DNA of 64,000 nt, taken from contig DGSC01000003.1 of the NCBI GenBank assembly GCA_002391275.1, positions 23,338-87,337 on the forward strand. The letters are read 5' to 3'. Position 1 is the first letter of the stretch. Each line of letters opens with the position of its first letter. The stretch comes from Prevotellaceae bacterium UBA4372 (GTDB lineage Bacteria; Bacteroidota; Bacteroidia; Bacteroidales; Bacteroidaceae). The notes under the pieces were generated by a model. The model was given only the letters and a program-made list of their open reading frames with translations, was not told the origin of the DNA and did no database searches. This document shows positions 5,030-63,653 of the stretch, piece by piece. A program made the translations under genes and the position numbers.

Positions 5030-6700
5030 ATGAACCAACGAACCATATTTCTCTTATTCCTGCTTATAGCCATGGGCACCATGGCTCAGGCCTATTCTGC
5101 ATCTGATGTTCCGTGTCCGGTGGAGCGTGTGGAAGTGGTGCCTTTGCCAGATCTTTCTATACCTCGAATGGGGCACGCGGTCTTCGTGACGAATGGTGAG
5201 CTGACAGTGGTCGGCGGGCACACCACAGGTTTTGTGCCCACACCCACTGCTGAGTATTACAAGGACGGGAAGTGGCATCTCATGAATATGACCTATACTC
5301 ATGACGATGGGCTTTGTGTTCCTCTTCGGTCGGGAAAGGTGCTTTTGGCAGGCGGTCATAGCGAACCCTTGGGCATTGGTCAGACCTTCTCGGCTGAGAT
5401 GTACGACCCCGTGCGACACACATTCCAAGGTTTTGGTTGCCTTTCCCGCAAGCGTGCGCTGACCTCGGGCGTGGAGTTGGACAGCGGCAAAGTGGTGATA
5501 GCAGGCAACTGGTATCACGACGATGGGGTGGAAATCTTCGACGGCAGGCGTAACTTCACAGATGTGAAGGAAGTCACCTGTGGGCGTGTGGCTCCCTTCA
5601 TCTTGCGCACCTCGCCTTGCGATGCCATCATTCTGGGCAGCAAGGGCAGCAGATATGAAGATATTCCCCTTTCTCATGTAGACCGCTTGCGGGGCGAGCC
5701 CTTCACAGTTCCCATGCTGGAAAAATGGCATTGTACGTCAGGGATGACTAACGCCAAGGAAGAAAACTTCGTGGGCGATGAGCAAAAGGGGCTCTATGCG
5801 TACCTGATTCCGGTGGCGGACAGTACGGGGCAGGTGGCCATCATGAAGGTCGAGGGAGAAGAATTCTCATTCTCATTGTTGCCTACCACTTGTCCCGTGC
5901 CGATGATGTGCGGAACCGACAGCATCCAATGGCTGAGCCACATTATGGCCGACCGTCAGCGTGGCAGAGCCTATCTATGCGGCACATGGGTACCTGCTCC
6001 CCATTACATGTATGTCCTCGCTATTGACTATCGGCCCGATGTGGCTCGTCTCACACTCCTCCGCACCGACTCCATTCCTGACATCGGCTCCATGCAGCCT
6101 GTCCTGACACCCGAGGGAAACATTGCCCTTGTGGGTGGTTGCCCGAGCGACAATTTCAATCCGCTTTCTTCTGCCTATCTGCTCAAACTCACTGAATCCA
6201 AAACCATTGCAATCGGTCGTAGTTGGTCGCTTTGGCCATTATTTGCTGGCTCTTTGGTTGCTCTGCTCCTTGGTGGCATTTGTTGGCTCGTGCTGCGCAA
6301 GAGAAAGAGTGCAAGACCAGATGTAGAGCCAATCCCGGAGGAGGACAAAGACGAAAAAGTCAGTAGCCTGATATATCGCATTTGCCAACAGATGGAGCAG
6401 AACCGTCTCTATCTGAACAGCGAACTGAAGTTGGCAGACATGGCCACAGCCCTTGGCGTTACGCCACGTGCCATTTCCGACTGCATTAACCAATGCAAAG
6501 GCTGTTCCTTCCCGCAGTGGGTGAATACCTACCGCGTGGAGCATGCCAAGCGGCTCTTGTCCCTACAACCTGATATCAAGATAGTCACGCTCTGCATGGA
6601 ATCAGGCTTCAGCAACGAGGCCACCTTCTTCCGCATCTTCAAGTCTCTGACGGGTATGACCCCTCGCGAGTGGCAGGAAGAATCGACTCGCAAAAGCTGA
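5030..6700 (+). CDS. Single-pass transmembrane AraC-family transcriptional regulator with an extracytoplasmic Kelch-like beta-propeller domain
   Basis: Signal peptide MNQRTIFLLFLLIAMGTMAQA. Propeller-like strands VVGGHT, LLAGGHSEP and VVIAGNWY. TM helix WSLWPLFAGSLVALLLGGICWLVL. C-terminal HTH_AraC: LADMATALGVTPRAISDCI...ESGFSNEATFFRIFKSLTGMTPREW. Confidence 0.8.
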   Translation: MNQRTIFLLFLLIAMGTMAQAYSASDVPCPVERVEVVPLPDLSIPRMGHAVFVTNGELTVVGGHTTGFVPTPTAEYYKDGKWHLMNMTYTHDDGLCVPLRSGKVLLAGGHSEPLGIGQTFSAEMYDPVRHTFQGFGCLSRKRALTSGVELDSGKVVIAGNWYHDDGVEIFDGRRNFTDVKEVTCGRVAPFILRTSPCDAIILGSKGSRYEDIPLSHVDRLRGEPFTVPMLEKWHCTSGMTNAKEENFVGDEQKGLYAYLIPVADSTGQVAIMKVEGEEFSFSLLPTTCPVPMMCGTDSIQWLSHIMADRQRGRAYLCGTWVPAPHYMYVLAIDYRPDVARLTLLRTDSIPDIGSMQPVLTPEGNIALVGGCPSDNFNPLSSAYLLKLTESKTIAIGRSWSLWPLFAGSLVALLLGGICWLVLRKRKSARPDVEPIPEEDKDEKVSSLIYRICQQMEQNRLYLNSELKLADMATALGVTPRAISDCINQCKGCSFPQWVNTYRVEHAKRLLSLQPDIKIVTLCMESGFSNEATFFRIFKSLTGMTPREWQEESTRKS

Positions 6701-54427: not shown

Positions 54428-54606
54428 CGTTGCCTGTCATGCTGCAAAAGTAGTGAATAGCACACATTTCCGAAAGCTTTTACATGAAAAAATAAAAAAT
54501 CAACACCCAGTTTAAATTCCCACCTCCTCAAGTCGTTATGCAGAAAGCAAAAAGGTGCAACATTAGATGTATCCAACCATTCCAAGGACATCGAAAGTAT
54601 GGCAAT

Positions 54607-54690
54607 AAAAAAAGCCCCCGTTAAAGGACGAGGGCAGGAACCTGAATGTTTTCACAACGGAATAATCCTTATTGTGAATTGCTGAAATTC
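54607..54690 (-). ncRNA. tracrRNA of the type II-C system
   Basis: Minus-strand RNA: GAAUUUCAGCAAUUCACAAU (anti-repeat, pairing with the first 21 nt of the crRNA-sense repeat GUUGUGAAUUGCUUGAAAUUC with one bulge), then AAGGAUUAUUCCGUU (nexus-like; compare AAGGCUAGUCCGUU in S. pyogenes), then ...GCCCUCG-UCCUUUAA-CGGGGGC and U7 (terminator). The 5' end is inferred from the promoter box. Confidence 0.85.
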
Positions 54691-54695
54691 GATGG

Positions 54696-54703
54696 CAAAG
54701 GTA
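54696..54703 (-). promoter_or_regulatory. -7 promoter box of the tracrRNA
   Basis: Plus-strand CAAAGGTA equals minus-strand TACCTTTG (TAnnTTTG). It ends 5 nt before the anti-repeat. Confidence 0.6.
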
Positions 54704-54766
54704 GATATTATGAATGAATAAACAAACTTTTCAGCATACTTTTGACCTCCTTCAAGGTTTTTTACT

Positions 54767-54774
54767 TATTTTTG
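54767..54774 (+). promoter_or_regulatory. Candidate -7 promoter box of the cas operon
   Basis: TATTTTTG lies 28 nt upstream of the cas9 ATG. A second box, TACTTTTG, is at 54737-54744. Confidence 0.45.
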
Positions 54775-54801
54775 CCCTCAAAACATTAACTCATTTACCG
54801 C

Positions 54802-57800
54802 ATGAAACACATCTTAGGATTAGATTTAGGCACCAATAGTATCGGCTGGGCTATTGTAAACGCAGAACAAATTGTTCGCGAGGATGAAACGAATTATCTG
54901 AAGCCTGTGAGTATTAGTTCTGCAGGTAGTAGAATTATCCCGATGTCTGCAGACATTCTTGGAGATTTTGACAAAGGCAATTCTATTTCACAAACAGCAG
55001 AACGTACACGGCTTAGGATGGCTCGCCGACTTAGGGAGCGCAACCTATTACGCCGTGAGCGGATGCTTCGAACATTGAAGCTCATGGGGTTCTTGCCTTC
55101 ACACTTTGCTAAGGAGATTGATATTTTTGGCAAGTTATTTAGCAACAAAGAGCCTAAGCTAGCCTGGAAAAAGAATGAAGAGGGCAAAAATTTATTCATT
55201 TTTCAGGATTCATTCAATGAAATGTTGGAAGATTTTGCGTGTCATCAGCCTCAATTGGTTGCTGAAGGCAGAAAAGTTCCATATGATTGGACGATATATT
55301 ATCTCCGCAAGAAAGCTTTGACTCAAAGAATTACTAAAGAAGAACTTGCCTGGATTTTATTACAATTCAATCAGAAGCGTGGATACTATCAGTTGCGAGG
55401 CGAAGACGAAGAGGATGATAACACAAAACGGGTTGAATACCTTGCTCTAAAAGTAGAACGGGTTGAGGCGACAGATGAAAAGAGAGGCGATGAAGTCTGG
55501 TACAACGTTTATCTTGAAAATGATATGGTCTATCGACGTACAAGTCGATATCCTCTTGATTGGGTTGGAAAAGTGAAAGAGTTTATTGTAACTACAGACC
55601 TTGAGAAAGATGGTAGTCCTAAAAAAGACAAGGAAGGGAATATAAAACGTTCTTTCCGCGCACCAAAAGAAGATGATTGGACATTGTTGAAAAAGAAGAC
55701 CGAAAATGACATTGAAAACAGCCAGAAGACTATTGGCTGCTATATTTATGACACCCTTTTGCAAAAGCCAAATCAAAAGATTATAGGTAAACTTGTTCGT
55801 ACCGTTGAGAGAAAATACTATAAAGACGAACTGCTTAGGATTTTGAGAAGGCAGCAAGAACTCATTCCCGAATTGCAAGATACTGAACTCTATAAGAAAT
55901 GTATAGAAGAATTATATCCCAATAATGAAGGACATCGTAGTAACCTTGCCAAATCTGATTTCGTCAATCTGTTTGTCAATGATATTCTGTTTTATCAGCG
56001 CCCTTTAAAAAGTAAGAAGTCTCAGATTGAAAACTGTCCTTATGAGTTTCATAAAGGCATAGATGGGAATTTATATCCTGTGAAGTGTATTGCTCAGTCT
56101 AATCCTTTATTCCAAGAATTCAGGCTTTGGCAGTTCATACAGAATCTACGTATATATCAACGCGAGAGAATCATCACCGATGGACAATTGGCCTTATTCG
56201 GAAGTACACATACAGGGAAGTTACAAACTGATGTTGACGTTACGGCTGAGTTTCTCAAATCAGAGGAAGATTATGTCAAACTATTCGATTGGCTAAATAA
56301 CAGAAATGCCATCAAGCAGGACACATTGCTCAATTCTTTTTTCAAAATAAAAAAAGAAAGAGGGAAGGACAAATACCCCTATCGATGGAACTATGTCGAA
56401 GACAAAGAATACCGGTGCAACGAGACACGAGCAGCGATGCTTACAGGATTAGAGAAGTCTGGAATCCGTACTGATGTTCTTACCCATGAAATGGAAATGG
56501 CATTATGGCACATCCTCTACTCCGTTGAAGACAAAACAGAAATAGGAAAAGCACTAAAGACATTTGCTAAAAAGAACAACCTTGGTGAAATGTTTGCAGA
56601 TGTCTTCTGCAAGATGAAACCATATAAAAAAGAATATCGTTCGTACTCAGAAAAGGCAATCCGAAAATTCCTTCCACTCATGCGAATGGGCAAATATTGG
56701 AACAAAGAGAACATTGACGACAAAACATTATCAAGAATCGAGAAAATCATCACAGGAGAATACGATAAAACCATCAAGAATCGAGTGAGAGAGAAAGCCA
56801 TTAACCTAACTGACATTGACCACTTCAAAGGATTGCCTGTATGGTTGGCTTGCTACATTGTTTACAATCGCCATTCTGAAGCAAGAGAGATTGAAAAGTG
56901 GGACAAGCCTGAAGACATAGATCGCTATCTGAACTCCTTCAAACAGCACTCTCTAAGAAATCCTATTGTCGAACAAGTTATTACTGAAACTTTACGCACT
57001 GTACGTGATATATGGAAGCAGGAAGGTGACATTGACGAGATTCATGTGGAGTTGGGTAGAGAAATGAAGAATCCTGCTGATAAGCGCAGGCTAATGACCG
57101 AACGTATTCAACAAAACGAGAATACCAATCTACGAATTAAAGCCTTGTTAATGGAATTCCTTAACCCTGAACTCGGAATAGAAAACGTTCGTCCACACTC
57201 CCCGAGCCAACAGGACATCTTAAGGATTTACGAAGAGAATGCTCTGGATAATCTCACCAAAGAAGACGCAGAATATGAATTTGTTACAAAGATATCCAAG
57301 ATGGCTCAACCTTCCAAATCAGACATCATTCGCTACAAATGTTGGTTGGAACAGAAATACAGATCGCCATATACAGGCAAGATGATTCCACTAAGCAAAT
57401 TGTTTACACCTGCATACGAGATAGAACATATCATTCCCCAGTCACGCTATTTTGATGATTCTTTCAGCAACAAAGTAATATGCGAGGCAGAGGTAAACAA
57501 GCTAAAGGACAGATTGCTTGGATATGAGTTCATCAAGGAACATGCTGGCGAGATTGTTCAACTAAGCCAAGGAGACACAGTGAAGATTCTCTCTGTGGAG
57601 GAATATGAGAAATTCGTAAAAGATTATTATGGCTCTAACAGGACAAAGATGAAGAAGCTGTTAATGGATGATATCCCTGATGGATTCATTGAACGGCAAC
57701 TGAATGATAGCCGTTACATTAGTAAGGTCATCAAGACACTACTTTCAAATATCGTACGTGAGAAATTAGAGAATGGAGAATACGAGCAAGAAGCTGTTTC

Positions 57801-59424
57801 CAGAAACCTTATTTCATGCAATGGTTCCATTACTGACCGCCTAAAAAAAGACTGGGGCATGAACGATGTATGGAATCATATTATCCTGCCTCGCTTCCAG
57901 CGTTTGAATGAACTTACAGGGACGAACCTCTTTACAACTCAAAATCACGAGGGGCATGAGATTCCTGCAATGCCATTTGAATTACAAAAGGGATTCAATA
58001 AAAAACGTATTGATCACCGCCATCACGCGATGGATGCTATTGTTATTGCCTGTGCAACTCGCGACCATGTCAACTTACTAAACAACGAAGCGGCTCATTC
58101 TAAGCACAACGCTAATCGATATCAGTTACAACGGAAGCTGAGACGATTTGCAAAGATTACTATCGACGGGAAAGAACGTGAGATTGCTCAAGAGTTCTTA
58201 AAACCTTGGCCTACTTTCACATCAGATGCCTTACGAACAATACAAAGCATCATCGTTAGTTTTAAGCAAAATTTACGTGTCATCAATAAGACAACAAACT
58301 CCTATCTGCATTATGATGAGTATGGAAAGAAGATATATCATAAGCAGACGCAGGGTGAGAGTTGGGCTATTCGGAAGTCCATGCATAAAGATACCGTATT
58401 CGGAGAAGTTAATCTGCGCAAGAAAAAATCAGTTTCAATTAAAGAAGCTATCGTGAAGCCAGAAGCCATTGTAAACAAAGAATTCAAAGAAAAGGTAAAA
58501 GAACTCATCGCTCAAGGTCATGATGCCAAATACATAAAAAAATACGTTGAGGATAATAAAGACATATGGTCAGATATAAACCCGTCGAAGATAGACGTTT
58601 ATTACTACACCCGAGATGAAAAGAAACAAAATGGCGAACCCAAAGAACGCTATTTTGCCACACGTAAGCCATTGGATACATCCTTTGACCAGAAGAAAAT
58701 CAAAGAGAGTATAACTGATACAGGCATACAAAAGATACTATTAGCCCATTTGGAGTCTAAAGGAAACGACCCCGAACAAGCCTTCTCACCTGATGGTATT
58801 GACGAGATGAATCGGAATATTGTGACCTTGAATAAGGATAAATTTCATCAACCGATTATCAAAGTGCGCGTCTATGAAAAGGCTGACAAATTCTGCATCG
58901 GACAGAAAGGGAATAAGAAGAAAAAATTTGTGGAGGCGGCTGACGGAACAAATCTCTTCTTTGCTGTTTATGAAACTGCAGATAAGAAGAGAGTGTTCGC
59001 AACCATTTCATTAGGCCTATCTATAGATTGCCAAAAAGAAGGTTCCCAATATTGGATTAAGCTACTTGATGAAAGGCTAAGAGACAAGACACCCACAGAA
59101 GAATTACAGCCTTATCAGAAAATGGATATTCCTACTGATGCTCATTTGTTATTCATTCTTTCCCCAAATGATTTAGTTTATGTCCCTTATGATGGTAAAC
59201 CTACGGATTTAACGCAGGTTGACAGGGATAGAATTTATAGGGCGGTTAGTTTCAATAAAAAACAATGTTTCTGCATTAAGTGTAATGTGGCCACCCCCAT
59301 TGTAAACAAAGTTGAATACACAACTTCAAACAAAATGGAACGCGCCACTACCGGTGAAATGATAAAAGAGGTCTGCGTCCCCATTAAAGTAGATAGACTT
59401 GGCAACATCACTAAAATTGGATAA
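54802..59424 (+). CDS. cas9: Cas9, type II-C, Bacteroidota large form (1540 aa)
   Basis: RuvC-I MKHILGLDLGTNSIGWAIV. Arg-rich bridge helix RTRLRMARRLRERNLLRRERMLR. HNH YEIEHIIPQSRYFDDSFSNKVICEAEVNKLK. RuvC-III IDHRHHAMDAIVIACAT. Confidence 0.97.
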   Translation: MKHILGLDLGTNSIGWAIVNAEQIVREDETNYLKPVSISSAGSRIIPMSADILGDFDKGNSISQTAERTRLRMARRLRERNLLRRERMLRTLKLMGFLPSHFAKEIDIFGKLFSNKEPKLAWKKNEEGKNLFIFQDSFNEMLEDFACHQPQLVAEGRKVPYDWTIYYLRKKALTQRITKEELAWILLQFNQKRGYYQLRGEDEEDDNTKRVEYLALKVERVEATDEKRGDEVWYNVYLENDMVYRRTSRYPLDWVGKVKEFIVTTDLEKDGSPKKDKEGNIKRSFRAPKEDDWTLLKKKTENDIENSQKTIGCYIYDTLLQKPNQKIIGKLVRTVERKYYKDELLRILRRQQELIPELQDTELYKKCIEELYPNNEGHRSNLAKSDFVNLFVNDILFYQRPLKSKKSQIENCPYEFHKGIDGNLYPVKCIAQSNPLFQEFRLWQFIQNLRIYQRERIITDGQLALFGSTHTGKLQTDVDVTAEFLKSEEDYVKLFDWLNNRNAIKQDTLLNSFFKIKKERGKDKYPYRWNYVEDKEYRCNETRAAMLTGLEKSGIRTDVLTHEMEMALWHILYSVEDKTEIGKALKTFAKKNNLGEMFADVFCKMKPYKKEYRSYSEKAIRKFLPLMRMGKYWNKENIDDKTLSRIEKIITGEYDKTIKNRVREKAINLTDIDHFKGLPVWLACYIVYNRHSEAREIEKWDKPEDIDRYLNSFKQHSLRNPIVEQVITETLRTVRDIWKQEGDIDEIHVELGREMKNPADKRRLMTERIQQNENTNLRIKALLMEFLNPELGIENVRPHSPSQQDILRIYEENALDNLTKEDAEYEFVTKISKMAQPSKSDIIRYKCWLEQKYRSPYTGKMIPLSKLFTPAYEIEHIIPQSRYFDDSFSNKVICEAEVNKLKDRLLGYEFIKEHAGEIVQLSQGDTVKILSVEEYEKFVKDYYGSNRTKMKKLLMDDIPDGFIERQLNDSRYISKVIKTLLSNIVREKLENGEYEQEAVSRNLISCNGSITDRLKKDWGMNDVWNHIILPRFQRLNELTGTNLFTTQNHEGHEIPAMPFELQKGFNKKRIDHRHHAMDAIVIACATRDHVNLLNNEAAHSKHNANRYQLQRKLRRFAKITIDGKEREIAQEFLKPWPTFTSDALRTIQSIIVSFKQNLRVINKTTNSYLHYDEYGKKIYHKQTQGESWAIRKSMHKDTVFGEVNLRKKKSVSIKEAIVKPEAIVNKEFKEKVKELIAQGHDAKYIKKYVEDNKDIWSDINPSKIDVYYYTRDEKKQNGEPKERYFATRKPLDTSFDQKKIKESITDTGIQKILLAHLESKGNDPEQAFSPDGIDEMNRNIVTLNKDKFHQPIIKVRVYEKADKFCIGQKGNKKKKFVEAADGTNLFFAVYETADKKRVFATISLGLSIDCQKEGSQYWIKLLDERLRDKTPTEELQPYQKMDIPTDAHLLFILSPNDLVYVPYDGKPTDLTQVDRDRIYRAVSFNKKQCFCIKCNVATPIVNKVEYTTSNKMERATTGEMIKEVCVPIKVDRLGNITKIG

Positions 59425-59426
59425 GC

Positions 59427-60632
59427 ATGAATGCAAACAACATAACTACCTACAAGCCTGCTGCTGAAACCATCAAGCAGGCTATTCTTCAAGGCCAATA
59501 TGAGGCTGCAAAGGGCGTTAACCGAATCCAGTTAGCCGTATATTTTGCTATCGGCAAATATATTTCTCTGAATACCCGTAAAGGTAAATGGGGAACCAGT
59601 GCATTGGAGTCCATCAGCCAGATACTGCGTAAGGAGTTGCCTGGGTTGAGAGGGTTCTCGGCAACAAACATGAAAAATATGCGTACTTTTTACGAAGCGT
59701 GGATTATATTAAATCCCAATTCGTCAGCCACGGCTGACGAATTACAACAAATTGATACTGTAGAGATTAGTAATTCGTCAGCCATGACTGACGAATTAGA
59801 CTCTAAGGAATCTGCAGTTGATATCAACGATTTTCAACGCACCCATATTGACATTTATACGGCTATCCAAATACCAGAAATAAAAAACTTCCCTATTGAT
59901 GACTTTTTCAGAGTTCCATTCACTCATCATCTCATGATTATTGAGAGAGAAAAAACACTTGAAGGGAGATATTATTACATCCATCGTACTGCAGAAGAGA
60001 ATCTTCAGAAAAGAACGCTTGAAAAGCTCATCAAAGAGGATGCCTATGGTCATCGCGATGCGATGCCAAGCAACTTTTCACAAAACATTCCCGATGCAAC
60101 ACTGGCTCGCAAAGCCGTGATGATGTTCAAGGACTCCTATCTGCTGGACTTCATCAACGTAGAGCAGATAGGGGAACGAGAAGCTATTGATGTGGATGAA
60201 CGAGAGGTTGAGCAACAGATTGTGCAGAATGTCAAGCAGTTCATCATGACTTTCGGACGTGACTTCACGTTCGTTGGCAACCAATACCACTTGGAAATAT
60301 ACGGAGTGGAACATTTCCCCGATTTGCTGTTCTTCAATCGCGAACTCAATGCCCTTGTGGTCGTTGAATTGAAAACAGGAGAATTTAAGACATCATATTT
60401 AGGCCAACTCATGGGCTACCTCTCCATTCTGGAAGCCAAAGTGAAGAAACCGCATGAGAATCCACCCATCGGCATTGTTCTATGCAAAGAAGCGAATCGG
60501 GAATATGTGGAGTTTGTCATACGGGATTACGCCAAGCCCATGGGCGTTGCTACATATAGGACAACAACCGACATGCCAGAGGAACTGCGGAATACCATGC
60601 CTGACATCGAAGAGCTCAAGAAACTGTTATGA
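59427..60632 (+). CDS. YhcG/DUF1016-family PD-(D/E)XK nuclease embedded in the cas operon
   Basis: 401 aa. N-domain: VNRIQLAVYFAIGKYI...GFSATNMKNMRTFYEAW. Core: FKDSYLLDFINV...FIMTFGRDFTFVGNQYHLEIYGVEHFPDLLFFNRELNALVVVELKTGEFKTSYLGQLMGYL...PPIGIVLC, with the D...ExK triad intact. The ATG is 2 nt after the cas9 stop, and the stop is 7 nt before the cas1 ATG. Confidence 0.85.
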   Translation: MNANNITTYKPAAETIKQAILQGQYEAAKGVNRIQLAVYFAIGKYISLNTRKGKWGTSALESISQILRKELPGLRGFSATNMKNMRTFYEAWIILNPNSSATADELQQIDTVEISNSSAMTDELDSKESAVDINDFQRTHIDIYTAIQIPEIKNFPIDDFFRVPFTHHLMIIEREKTLEGRYYYIHRTAEENLQKRTLEKLIKEDAYGHRDAMPSNFSQNIPDATLARKAVMMFKDSYLLDFINVEQIGEREAIDVDEREVEQQIVQNVKQFIMTFGRDFTFVGNQYHLEIYGVEHFPDLLFFNRELNALVVVELKTGEFKTSYLGQLMGYLSILEAKVKKPHENPPIGIVLCKEANREYVEFVIRDYAKPMGVATYRTTTDMPEELRNTMPDIEELKKLL

Positions 60633-60639
60633 CCTGCCT

Positions 60640-61578
60640 ATGATCAAGAAAACGCTTTGCTTCTCTAACCCTGCTTACCTTAGCCTGCGCAACGGACAAT
60701 TAGTCATCCAGATTCCCGACGTGGAAAAGAATGAAAGCTTGACGCATGAGTTCAAGAAAATGAACGAGCGTACAATCCCGATTGAAGACATTGGCGTGGT
60801 GGTGCTTGACAACAAACGCATCACCATCACTACGGGTGCCATGGAAGCGCTCTTAGAGAACAACGCAGCCCTCATCACCTGCGACAGCCGCAGCATGCCC
60901 GTGGGACTGATGCTGCCACTCTATGGCAACACGCTCCAGAACGAACGCTTTCGTGAACAACTCGATGCCTCTCTGCCTTTACGCAAACAGCTTTGGCAAC
61001 AGACCATCCGACAGAAAATAGCCAACCAAGAGGTTGTGCTGCGTCGTCATACCGAGGCTGAGACACGTTGTATGCAAGTATGGGTGGATGAGGTGCGCAG
61101 CGGCGATGCAGACAACCTCGAAGCAAGAGCCGCGGCTTACTACTGGCGCAACATATTCCCACAGCTTCCTGACTTCGTACGTGGACGCGATGGCGAACCG
61201 CCAAACAACCTCCTAAATTACGGCTATGCTATCTTACGTGCCGTCATAGCCCGTTCTCTTGTAGGAAGTGGATTATTACCTACATTAGGAATCCACCATC
61301 ACAATCGCTACAACGCCTACTGTCTTGCAGATGACATCATGGAGCCTTACAGACCCTATGTGGATGAGCTCGTCATAAAAATTATCCATAAGTATGCCGA
61401 CTATTCCGAACTCACCAAAGAGCTGAAAGCCGAACTACTTGCAATCCCTGTGCTGGACGTAGTCATTGACGGCAAACGCAGCCCACTGATGATAGCTGCA
61501 ACGCAAACCACAGCCTCACTCTATAAATGTTTCAGCGGGGAGTTGCGCAAAGTGAGTTATCCACAAATGGAAGGATAA
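60640..61578 (+). CDS. cas1: Cas1 integrase (type II)
   Basis: The true start is MIKKTLCFSNPAYLSLRNGQLVIQ at 60640; the track ORF from 60454 overlaps the nuclease gene. NLLNYGYAILRAVIARSLVGSGLLPTLGIHHHNRYNAYCLADDIMEPYRPYVD. Confidence 0.95.
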   Translation: MIKKTLCFSNPAYLSLRNGQLVIQIPDVEKNESLTHEFKKMNERTIPIEDIGVVVLDNKRITITTGAMEALLENNAALITCDSRSMPVGLMLPLYGNTLQNERFREQLDASLPLRKQLWQQTIRQKIANQEVVLRRHTEAETRCMQVWVDEVRSGDADNLEARAAAYYWRNIFPQLPDFVRGRDGEPPNNLLNYGYAILRAVIARSLVGSGLLPTLGIHHHNRYNAYCLADDIMEPYRPYVDELVIKIIHKYADYSELTKELKAELLAIPVLDVVIDGKRSPLMIAATQTTASLYKCFSGELRKVSYPQMEG

Positions 61579-61582
61579 AACT

Positions 61583-61930
61583 ATGATTGCCGCAGATGCC
61601 TCACGTTTCAGTCAGTATCGTGTGATGTGGATTCTCGTTTTCTTCGACCTACCAACCGACACTAAGAAGGAACGCAAAGCTGCAGCCAAGTTCCGAAAGG
61701 ACATCATGGGCGACGGCTTCACTATGTTCCAATTCTCCATATATATCCGGCATTGCGCCAGTCGCGAGAACATGGACGTACACATTAAGCGTGTCAAAGC
61801 TGCATTGCCTGAATATGGAAATGTTGGCATATTGGGAATCACGGACAAGCAGTTCGCAGACATTGAACTATTCTATGGCAAGAAAGAGAAAGCACCGTCT
61901 ACTCCAGGACAACAGCTTGAACTCTTCTGA
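61583..61930 (+). CDS. cas2: Cas2 (type II)
   Basis: 115 aa. YRVMWILVFFDLPTDTKKERKAAAKFRKDIMGDGFTMFQFSIYIRHC. Starts 4 nt after the cas1 stop. Confidence 0.93.
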   Translation: MIAADASRFSQYRVMWILVFFDLPTDTKKERKAAAKFRKDIMGDGFTMFQFSIYIRHCASRENMDVHIKRVKAALPEYGNVGILGITDKQFADIELFYGKKEKAPSTPGQQLELF

Positions 61931-62067: not shown

Positions 62068-63037
62068 GGTGTTTATGATAGTGCAAAGATGAAGAATTTC
62101 AAGCAATTCACAACTGGTACTCGTAGATGTTACCCCACCACTGCGGTGTTTATGATAGTGCAAAGATGAAGAATTTCAAGCAATTCACAACTTTGTTAAT
62201 TCCTAATATTTTTGCAAAAAAGGTGTTTATGATAGTGCAAAGATGAAGAATTTCAAGCAATTCACAACGGTTGCCATAGCTCGATACGAGGTGACTCGGG
62301 TGTTTATGATAGTGCAAAGATGAAGAATTTCAAGCAATTCACAACCTGCATGGCCTCGCCACGCTCACTCGCCTGGGTGTTTATGATAGTGCAAAGATGA
62401 AGAATTTCAAGCAATTCACAACTATTTTTCTAAGTATTCGTCTTTTGATAAAGGTGTTTATGATAGTGCAAAGATGAAGAATTTCAAGCAATTCACAACT
62501 ATTCAAGGTGAAGGTATACAATTTGAAACGGTGTTTATGATAGTGCAAAGATGAAGAATTTCAAGCAATTCACAACGGCCATTGGATCAACCATCCTTGA
62601 TTATCAGGTGTTTATGATAGTGCAAAGATGAAGAATTTCAAGCAATTCACAACGTGCGACAACTGCGAGGACTATGAGCCGGAGGTGTTTATGATAGTGC
62701 AAAGATGAAGAATTTCAAGCAATTCACAACGGAGGACTGAACTATGGCAAGGAAACTATCGGTGTTTATGATAGTGCAAAGATGAAGAATTTCAAGCAAT
62801 TCACAACTGTACGCGAGCAGACATGATTTTTTTCTTGGTGTTTATGATAGTGCAAAGATGAAGAATTTCAAGCAATTCACAACTGCCATAATGTTAAAAC
62901 AGTTTTTGGTCTTGGTGTTTATGATAGTGCAAAGATGAAGAATTTCAAGCAATTCACAACAACAATGAGTAAAGTCAAGTACAGAGTTCGGGTGTTTATG
63001 ATAGTGCAAAGATGAAGAATTTCAAGCAATTCACAAC
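62068..63037 (-). CRISPR. CRISPR array: 13 identical 47-nt repeats and 12 spacers (eleven of 30 nt, one of 29 nt)
   Basis: Plus-strand repeat is GGTGTTTATGATAGTGCAAAGATGAAGAATTTCAAGCAATTCACAAC. crRNA sense is the minus strand, GTTGTGAATTGCTTGAAATTCTTCATCTTTGCACTATCATAAACACC, as shown by tracrRNA complementarity. Repeats start at 62068 plus 77n through repeat 10 (62761). After the 29-nt spacer 10, repeats 11-13 start at 62837, 62914 and 62991. Confidence 0.98.
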
Positions 63038-63075
63038 AGTATGTCAAAGATCTCAATATGCCTTTAATGACTTCG

Positions 63076-63083: not shown

Positions 63084-63254
63084 AATAAAAATATTGAAAG
63101 GTCATGAGAATATAGAAATAAAAGAATAATAGAAATTAGAGAATAATGAGTTCCTTAGCCTATATGAACGCACCAGCAATGCCTGTTTGACATGGTTAAC
63201 GTTAATTTAGATAGGTTTGCCGCTTATATCGATGAAGAACCTTTGGAACCTCAA

Positions 63255-63408
63255 AACCATACAGCAGTATGCATATAGCTGGAATTCCAGGAAACAAAGA
63301 AATACAATCAGTAGTATCAGCCTATACAAACGGAAGCATCAAACAACACAACCTGAAGAATCTGCCTATACAATCGCATGCATCAACCTATACAAACAGA
63401 AGCACTGG
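63255..63408. repeat. About seven degenerate tandem units with a 22-bp period
   Basis: CCTATACAA occurs at 63321, 63365 and 63387 (spacings of 44 and 22). Related units are AATACAATCAGTAGTATCAG at 63301 and CCATACAGCAGTATGCAT at 63258. Confidence 0.6.
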
Positions 63409-63653
63409 TTGTTCAGTCGTGACCGAACAACCCGCATCCTTAAAAGTTTTTTCGCCATTGCATGCTTCCGAGCCCTCTCCTCTACATTCGTTCCTGCACC
63501 ACCTATCAGAAGCATCAAGTCATCCCGCTTCACCCTATGTCCCGAGGTGCTGGAGCTACACACCACCCCTCTGGCACGTTTTATAAATCGCCTCTGGTAT
63601 AATCCCAAGGTCTCGTATGGGCTCTGTCAGAAGCTGTTATAGCATTGCCATTC

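Follow-up and report, generated by a model that had tools for sequence, protein, structure and literature searches.

A YhcG-family nuclease gene as probable cargo between cas9 and cas1 of Bacteroidales type II-C CRISPR-Cas operons

A gene for a YhcG/DUF1016-type PD-(D/E)XK nuclease was found between cas9 and cas1 of a type II-C CRISPR-Cas operon in a 64-kb stretch of DNA from Prevotellaceae bacterium UBA4372 (GenBank assembly GCA_002391275.1, contig DGSC01000003.1, positions 23,338 to 87,337 of the forward strand), which is referred to as the window. On balance, this gene probably encodes an embedded, co-transcribed and autonomously acting defence-candidate nuclease and is cargo of the cas9-cas1 slot, where several such genes can take each other's place. 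Coordinates are those of the window unless preceded by the number of a fetched locus (L-numbers); YhcG homologues are designated by P-numbers.

Distribution of the gene and occupancy of the cas9-cas1 slot

The order cas9-YhcG-cas1-cas2 recurs, with all genes on the same strand, in at least 11 lineages whose YhcG proteins are 77-98% identical, as emerged from the gene-neighbourhood check that a preliminary description of the locus had called for. It was seen in context look-ups for P0006, P0010, P0012, P0014, P0021, P0022, P0024, P0027 and P0073, to which L015 was added from a scan of GTDB species genomes; together with the window, this gives 11 lineages. Embedded copies are spaced 2-114 nt from cas9 and 3-33 nt from cas1. 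The chromosomal neighbourhoods of these lineages differ (glycosidases, Tex, threonyl-tRNA synthetase, a VapE-type mobile element), and their Cas9 proteins, which measure 1224 to ~1775 aa and are 23-77% identical to the window Cas9, fall into at least four groups with 23-35% identity between groups. One lineage, represented by two independent assemblies (L192 3965-4895, L193 3879-4809), combines an intact YhcG gene with a cas1 gene that carries an identical frameshift near codon 214 in both assemblies; its cas9-like open reading frame (ORF) comprises only ~800 aa, the contigs ending just upstream. Genomes may contain several YhcG paralogues (e.g. L048/L049, L064/L070). Genes for HU-HIG, VapE/BT4734-like primase and HTH_17 proteins adjoin the YhcG-bearing II-C loci in L001 (11849-17206) and L189 (1-384), which suggests that an integrative mobile element carries or borders some loci of this kind.

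The gene was absent from all 80 metagenomic loci with the closest Cas1 proteins (70-95% identity), and only 3 of the 79 GTDB loci with a YhcG protein of 60-83% identity had it within a cas operon. An empty counterpart of the window is provided by L093, which shares the chromosomal flank, including an upstream S9-peptidase gene (84-90% nt identity), and encodes a Cas1 protein 95% identical to that of the window, while its cas9-cas1 slot consists of a 55-nt hairpin-containing spacer without YhcG; between the Cas9 proteins of this locus and of L001, which does bear YhcG, identity is 91%. Stand-alone homologues (P0042, P0087 and P0036, 77-78% identical) were located in three settings, namely beside DUF1848 and leucine-rich repeat genes, in a defence island (DarT/HD-Macro-DUF3644-methylase-RhuM-integrase) and alone. 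In an alignment, the non-cas relatives were 77-80% identical overall, with an almost invariant nuclease domain in which no substitution marking embedded versus stand-alone copies was seen; A369 was rejected as a marker of embedded copies because P0012 has N369 yet is embedded in a cas locus. Closely related II-C loci thus lack the gene while near-identical copies stand beside integrase, methylase and defence genes, a distribution that largely corresponds to the one which the preliminary description had set against its own proposals of a CRISPR-linked function.

The cas9-cas1 slot is a hotspot, with RhuM or Bro-N genes as alternative occupants. It was occupied in ~25% (about 20) of the 80 Cas1-anchored loci and empty in the rest. 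Intact RhuM genes (PF13310, PDC-S05) were present in L122, L138, L151 and L153 and a truncated one, classed as partial, in L141; intact Bro-N genes (PF02498, PDC-S13) were seen in L123, L142, L152 and L155-L159, whereas L097, L117, L119, L146 and L162-L164 contained frameshifted or decayed remnants of either gene. RhuM and Bro-N belong to no nuclease family, and homologues of both were also found near non-cas YhcG copies. RhuM ORFs have been described between cas9 and cas1 of Bacteroides fragilis II-C loci (Tajkarimi and Wexler 2017, PMC5704556), and DUF1016 and RhuM are strongly enriched beside phase-variable type I restriction-modification (R-M) genes (PMC9881135). The PDC families comprise genes embedded in BREX, DISARM and type I R-M operons, PDC-S02 being classed as a phage-defence candidate only (Payne et al., bioRxiv 10.1101/2024.01.29.577857). 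The PDC-S02 trait of a nested gene, co-oriented within a multi-gene defence system, is present here as well, with the difference that the host is a II-C CRISPR system, unlike the hosts that define the family. YhcG, RhuM and Bro-N, three candidate families with genes nested in type I R-M operons, are also nested between cas9 and cas1. Because none of the 80 Cas1 relatives is accompanied by YhcG and the slot also takes RhuM and Bro-N, the YhcG gene is read from these comparisons as cargo and not as a core component of the system.

An insertion scar was recognized in L202 (372-476), where a 44/47-nt duplicate of the 5' end of cas1 directly follows the cas9 stop codon, at positions -98 to -51 relative to the YhcG start codon. 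Decayed duplicates of the cas1 start were located at the same place in L173 (~5902-5941) and L192 (~2656-2707), both of which beat 200 of 200 shuffles; the duplicate was borderline in L008 and absent from the window. A conserved leader of ~35 nt (CAACAAAGCATTAACAGAAACGTTATAATAAC) follows the scar position in L008, L173, L189, L192 and L195. The gap between the YhcG stop codon and cas1 measures 7 nt in the five lineages read at the DNA level (window, L001, L006, L008, L015); for most of the others, gene coordinates put it at 3-9 nt, and for L173 at 33 nt. Since 47 nt of the cas1 start are duplicated, the cassette entered 47 nt into cas1, thereby duplicating its start, and this insertion most likely happened once. 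In the window, L001, L006, L015, L201 and L195, where the scar is missing and the spacing is 2-40 nt, it was deleted later. The single origin was judged on the shared scar and leader, not on trees: neighbour-joining trees recovered embedded copies as monophyletic at first and no longer did so with denser sampling, with a bootstrap of 20/60 for the split between cas and non-cas copies. Too great a similarity of the conserved domains kept the trees from confirming monophyly.

The II-C loci examined are recombination mosaics, with rampant recombination. Comparison of the window (59440-60640) with L001 (8014-9214) yielded 98-100% nt identity and a synonymous divergence (dS) of 0.04 for the YhcG ORF, as against 83-92% and a dS of 0.38 for the adjacent cas1 gene, the cas9 genes being unrelated. 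This tenfold difference in dS implies a separate and recent exchange or conversion of the YhcG ORF; movement of YhcG as a block with cas1-cas2 accordingly holds in part only. The cas9 alleles have also been swapped: window segments 54603-54862 and 60638-61740, set against L093 and L001, showed 84-88% nt identity for the leader/tracrRNA region and for cas1-cas2 between loci whose Cas9 proteins are only 26% identical.

The YhcG protein and the palindrome within its gene

The assignment to the YhcG/DUF1016 family (PF17761 and PF06250, COG4804) was borne out by domains, catalytic motif and homology to E. coli YhcG. Both Pfam domains scored well above their cut-offs (DUF1016_N, 84.4 bits vs 32.8; YhcG_C, 158.9 bits vs 32.5) and follow each other in N-to-C order, with a hypervariable linker (aa ~96-140) interrupting DUF1016_N. 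The catalytic motif quoted in the preliminary description is intact, comprising FPD299LLFF (D299, codon gat, 60321-60323) and VVVE314LK316 (E314, gaa, 60366-60368; K316, aaa, 60372-60374). In an alignment of 49 Bacteroidales and enterobacterial sequences, E262, D299 and K316 were invariant and position 314 was E or D. Full-length BLASTP against E. coli YhcG gave 26% identity (E 4e-28). The PADLOC model PDLC04795 of PDC-S02 matched residues 4-400 (1.5e-113), and more than 20 other PDC-S02 models matched as well; the sole cas-related match was to the loose 'PD_DExK, associated' profile of the PADLOC cas set (3.8e-17, residues 168-314). No match to Cas4/DUF83 or PDDEXK_1 was obtained at E <= 0.01 in Pfam or NCBIfam, and the protein contains one cysteine (C353), so that a four-cysteine Fe-S cluster is not possible. 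Homologues are numerous (11,018 clusters at 50% identity, E <= 1e-3), the cas-embedded copies forming a small twig of this very large family. The ratio of non-synonymous to synonymous substitution rates was 0.05-0.09 where dS was unsaturated, which indicates strong purifying selection.

From a shallow alignment, whose 30 sequences were all >= 75% identical, AlphaFold2 returned a model with a predicted local distance difference test (pLDDT) score of 53.5 and an unusable nuclease core, which was discarded; addition of 25 enterobacterial YhcG sequences raised the score to 62.6 only. The N-terminal domain was confidently predicted as all-helical (pLDDT 74-92 outside the linker) and the nuclease core, with moderate confidence, to have an alpha-beta-beta-beta-alpha-beta order. 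A phmmer search against PDB sequences retrieved no relative, Foldseek found no structural match to the N-terminal domain in the PDB, and neither AlphaFold2 model had a Foldseek match in the PDB at E <= 1e-3. With the pLDDT-62.6 model, the top-probability Foldseek matches were EndoMS/NucS and Hjc (5gke, 2vld, 1ob8) at non-significant E values of 0.03-0.08; 5gke_A and 2vld_B reached a probability of 1.0 at E values of only 0.04-0.05, and a Cas4-family protein ranked lower. Because Foldseek and phmmer gave no significant match, the structural claims rest mainly on Pfam and on the literature, in which YhcG_C has been linked to DUF91/NucS and Hjc by profile and fold (Kosinski et al., PMC1189080); the weak Foldseek hits lie in the same direction.

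The gene contains a 26-nt palindrome (stem of 11 bp, loop of 4 nt), which occurs in one to three copies per gene in the hypervariable linker of the Bacteroidales YhcG subfamily. It was located at ~+290 to +400 in every YhcG gene of L001-L092 and L173-L203. In ~2.5 Mb of fetched loci, it was confined to YhcG genes, embedded and stand-alone alike, which ruled out a genome-wide element of the repetitive extragenic palindrome or miniature inverted-repeat transposable element type. Perfect stems were present in 42 of the 67 distinct instances. At stem positions left free in the search pattern, 96.7% of cells were paired, with 72 double-sided changes; none of 500 shuffles reached the observed covariation score, and slid controls did not exceed 52%. 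The encoded peptide varies while the palindrome is kept (NSSAMTDEL, NSTIMIVEL, NSPIAIGEL and others), and the RNA of 59705-59810 folds at -38.8 kcal/mol (z = -7.9). These patterns indicate that DNA or RNA structure is selected for at the palindrome, to the detriment of the peptide. A covarying palindrome restricted to one gene constitutes a puzzle separate from the embedding.

Locus layout and expression

The coordinates and the gene order cas9-YhcG-cas1-cas2 given in the preliminary description proved exact (Table 1). The cas9 stop codon (TAA, 59422-59424) and the YhcG start codon are separated by 2 nt (GC), the YhcG stop codon (TGA, 60630-60632) and the cas1 start codon by 7 nt (CCTGCCT). 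The assignment to type II-C was upheld by hidden Markov model matches for Cas9, Cas1 and Cas2 and by the presence of a unit for the trans-activating CRISPR RNA (tracrRNA) and of an array; csn2 and cas4 are absent. The N-terminus of Cas1 (MIKKTLCFSNPAYLSL) is common to all relatives. In the putative tracrRNA unit on the minus strand, a Bacteroides-type promoter (54696-54726) is followed by an anti-repeat (54659-54683) and by a T-run-bearing terminator hairpin (54614-54635), and the array was oriented on the minus strand because its repeat complements the anti-repeat. Just downstream of the array, a 22-nt unit is repeated in tandem in ~5 copies (63301-63410) within small ORFs (63217-63642).

Table 1. 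Features of the II-C locus and of the embedded YhcG gene
Feature	Coordinates	Strand	Remarks
Putative tracrRNA unit	54614-54726	-	promoter motif, anti-repeat, terminator
Bacteroides-type promoter TTTG..N..TAnnTTTG	54741-54774	+	28 nt 5' of cas9 ATG
cas9, type II-C, 1540 aa	54802-59424	+	TIGR01865 1.5e-112, HNH_4, RuvC_III
YhcG/DUF1016 PD-(D/E)XK nuclease gene, 401 aa	59427-60632	+	PF17761 + PF06250, PADLOC PDC-S02
DUF1016_N helical domain, aa 16-207	59472-60047	+	Pfam match
Palindrome copy 1, 26 nt, AATTCGTCAGC-CACG-GCTGACGAATT	59718-59743		encodes NSSATADE(L)
Palindrome copy 2, 26 nt, AATTCGTCAGC-CATG-ACTGACGAATT	59772-59797		encodes NSSAMTDE(L)
YhcG_C PD-(D/E)XK nuclease domain, aa 233-392	60123-60602	+	Pfam 1.2e-46
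cas1, type II, 312 aa	60640-61578	+	TIGR03639 cas1_NMENI 3.3e-93
cas2, 115 aa	61583-61930	+	TIGR01573 1.9e-20
CRISPR array, 13 identical 47-nt repeats, 12 spacers of ~30 nt	62069-63038	-	repeat start GTTGTGAATTGC

Promoters were searched for with the Bacteroides-type motif TTTG/TAnnTTTG in place of a sigma-70 scan, which was dropped as not informative for Bacteroidota. The motif had 8 matches in the window against 1.0 expected, none of them on the plus strand between 54802 and 62000. Neither a promoter of this type nor a terminator-like site was found on the plus strand between cas9 and cas2, which agrees with the single transcript proposed in the preliminary description. The motif TAnnTTTG (the Bacteroides -7 motif) preceded 50 of the 85 non-cas YhcG copies (within 150 nt) but none of the nine embedded ones (within 200 nt), and a first, hand-checked set gave 5/7 versus 0/9 (Fisher p = 0.005). 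As embedded copies have no promoter motif of their own, they would depend on read-through from cas9, and we infer that embedded YhcG is transcribed from the cas9 promoter. Promoter-like hexamers of sigma-70 consensus, uninformative for Bacteroidota, were noted inside the CRISPR repeats (minus strand, 62075-62179 and later repeats). Promoters within repeats on the strand of the CRISPR RNA are known for some II-C arrays.

Rival readings and relation to known systems

According to the reading of the gene as interchangeable, autonomously acting cargo, YhcG was inserted into the cas9-cas1 junction of a Bacteroidales II-C operon, and the cassette has spread among II-C loci with unrelated cas9 genes and has been kept under purifying selection. 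The helical N-terminal domain may sense targets or bind DNA, and the C-terminal core would be a metal-dependent PD-(D/E)XK endonuclease of the NucS/Hjc-like branch. The protein would act alone as a second-layer nuclease against phages and mobile genetic elements, presumably like its near-identical relatives that have their own promoters and lie in defence islands. Embedding would bring co-regulation and co-transfer with CRISPR-Cas; the nuclease could possibly serve as a back-up upon Cas9 failure and would have no role in spacer acquisition. Several points weigh against this account. We know of no YhcG or PDC-S02 protein with experimentally demonstrated defence activity, and the census drew on a sample, not an exhaustive one, of 79 loci from GTDB, 80 from metagenomes and 12 context look-ups. 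The cassette, which appears to go back to one capture in view of its shared scar position, its leader and, in the lineages read at the DNA level, its 7-nt gap to cas1, has been kept through ~20% protein divergence, always immediately 5' of cas1, and the window lineage has been compacted to a spacing of 2 nt from cas9. Single capture, long retention and compaction may also fit a functional link with the adaptation module, and models of this type stay alive because of the long retention, the position 5' of cas1, the promoter loss and the compaction in the window; the spread, in turn, could be explained by hitch-hiking alone.

The preliminary description had envisaged a Cas4 analogue. Such a nuclease would associate with Cas1-Cas2 and, in a II-C system otherwise devoid of Cas4, either trim or orient prespacers or make the selection of protospacer-adjacent motifs better. 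YhcG is, like Cas4, a PD-(D/E)XK nuclease, lies directly 5' of cas1 (3-33 nt) in all 11 embedded lineages and has in some of them been kept with closely similar cas1-cas2 genes while cas9 was swapped; a precedent is the Cas4-like nuclease that can influence II-C adaptation in Campylobacter, to go by a statement cited in PMC5704561. Such a role is nevertheless the least probable of those considered, given a protein with no Cas4 or PDDEXK_1 match in Pfam and one cysteine, its absence from all 80 nearest Cas1 relatives, a slot open also to RhuM and Bro-N, neither of them from a nuclease family, and a nuclease domain in which no substitution setting embedded copies apart was seen. The histories of YhcG and cas1 moreover differ between the window and L001 (dS 0.04 vs 0.38), and the L192/L193 lineage pairs intact YhcG with broken cas1. 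The Cas9-coupled effector suggested as a second option fares little better. A guard or back-up with a functional tie to the II-C system, comparable to that between PrrC and EcoprrI, would remain silent under intact Cas9 and Cas1 and be released by anti-CRISPRs or Cas9 failure, or would degrade DNA after Cas9 cleavage. The embedding logic that Payne et al. (bioRxiv 10.1101/2024.01.29.577857) set out for PrrC and BrxU, the strict co-orientation, the lack of an own promoter and the long retention in cas operons speak for it, whereas the same protein also occurs outside cas loci. Its association with at least four deeply different Cas9 groups (23-35% identical), which argues against a specific Cas9 partnership, and its presence in the degenerate locus L192/L193 make a specific protein-protein sensor of Cas9 unlikely, and we regard the guard model as improbable overall.

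A selfish passenger without any defence role, such as a homing-like or recombination-promoting nuclease, would persist through linkage to a selected and frequently transferred locus, with the palindromes as its own recombination or target sites. This fits the palindromes, which covary and are confined to the gene, the several paralogues per genome, the 98-100% nt identity of the YhcG ORF alone between the window and L001 (flanks 83-92% identical or unrelated) and the ready decay of other slot cargo. It fits poorly with purifying selection over the whole protein, catalytic residues included, across ~20% divergence, with an association with defence islands and R-M operons instead of transposases, and with the absence of co-converted flanks from pairs of empty and filled sites, and is rated slightly below the guard model. 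Still unlikely, although less so than these three, is the idea that the slot is a dedicated dock for interchangeable YhcG, RhuM and Bro-N modules wired to CRISPR immunity, in which the palindromes would act as a regulatory or self-recognition element; the modules might be sensors or back-ups that fire upon Cas9 inhibition, or adaptation helpers. The locus offers a natural test bed for distinguishing autonomous defence, back-up and hitch-hiker, with four genes under one promoter and with filled, empty and decayed alleles.

The presence of RhuM in the cas9-cas1 slot of B. fragilis is already known. Apparently new are the YhcG variant, the picture of the slot as a hotspot, the insertion scar and the palindromes. 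In agreement with the preliminary description, no published II-C variant with YhcG and no link between DUF1016/YhcG and Cas9 was found in the literature searched, a brief mention in Makarova 2015 or Chylinski 2014 being possible. The general idea exists already, as the PADLOC profile 'PD_DExK, associated' and the 'less common PD-DExK families' near CRISPR loci mentioned by Hudaiberdiev et al. attest. The B. fragilis RhuM loci (PMC5704556) share with the window the slot, the bacterial order and the subtype (47-nt repeats), and RhuM is likewise linked to type I R-M systems; the cargo of the window differs in being a PD-(D/E)XK nuclease, and the YhcG variant is not mentioned in that report.

Cas4 of II-B and class 1 systems likewise belongs to the PD-(D/E)XK nuclease superfamily and has its gene next to cas1; it requires four conserved cysteines as ligands of an Fe-S cluster (PMC5704561). 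The window protein, by contrast, is of a different family and has a YhcG_C domain that is probably NucS/Hjc-like and not RecB-like, no Fe-S cysteines and an additional 200-aa helical N-terminal domain, and its gene is patchily distributed among sister loci and interchangeable with RhuM and Bro-N. An extra nuclease beside cas1 should hence not automatically be annotated as a Cas4 analogue. E. coli YhcG has the same two-domain architecture and E-D-(E/D)xK motif, at 26% identity, and lacks the palindrome-bearing linker of the Bacteroidales subfamily. A likeness of YhcG_C to NucS and Hjc in profile and fold has been reported (PMC1189080), the structural matches obtained here being non-significant, and we know of no biochemistry for any YhcG protein. 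Closest to the arrangement described here is PDC-S02 (Payne et al. 2024), which comprises the same family and shows the same habit of a single co-oriented gene nested in another defence operon. Unlike the set that defines PDC-S02, the window copy has lost its own promoter and its relatives keep a cas1-duplication scar, and the host is a II-C CRISPR-Cas system, a kind of system outside that study. The principle of 'guilt by embedding' is thereby extended from R-M, BREX and DISARM to a class 2 CRISPR operon.

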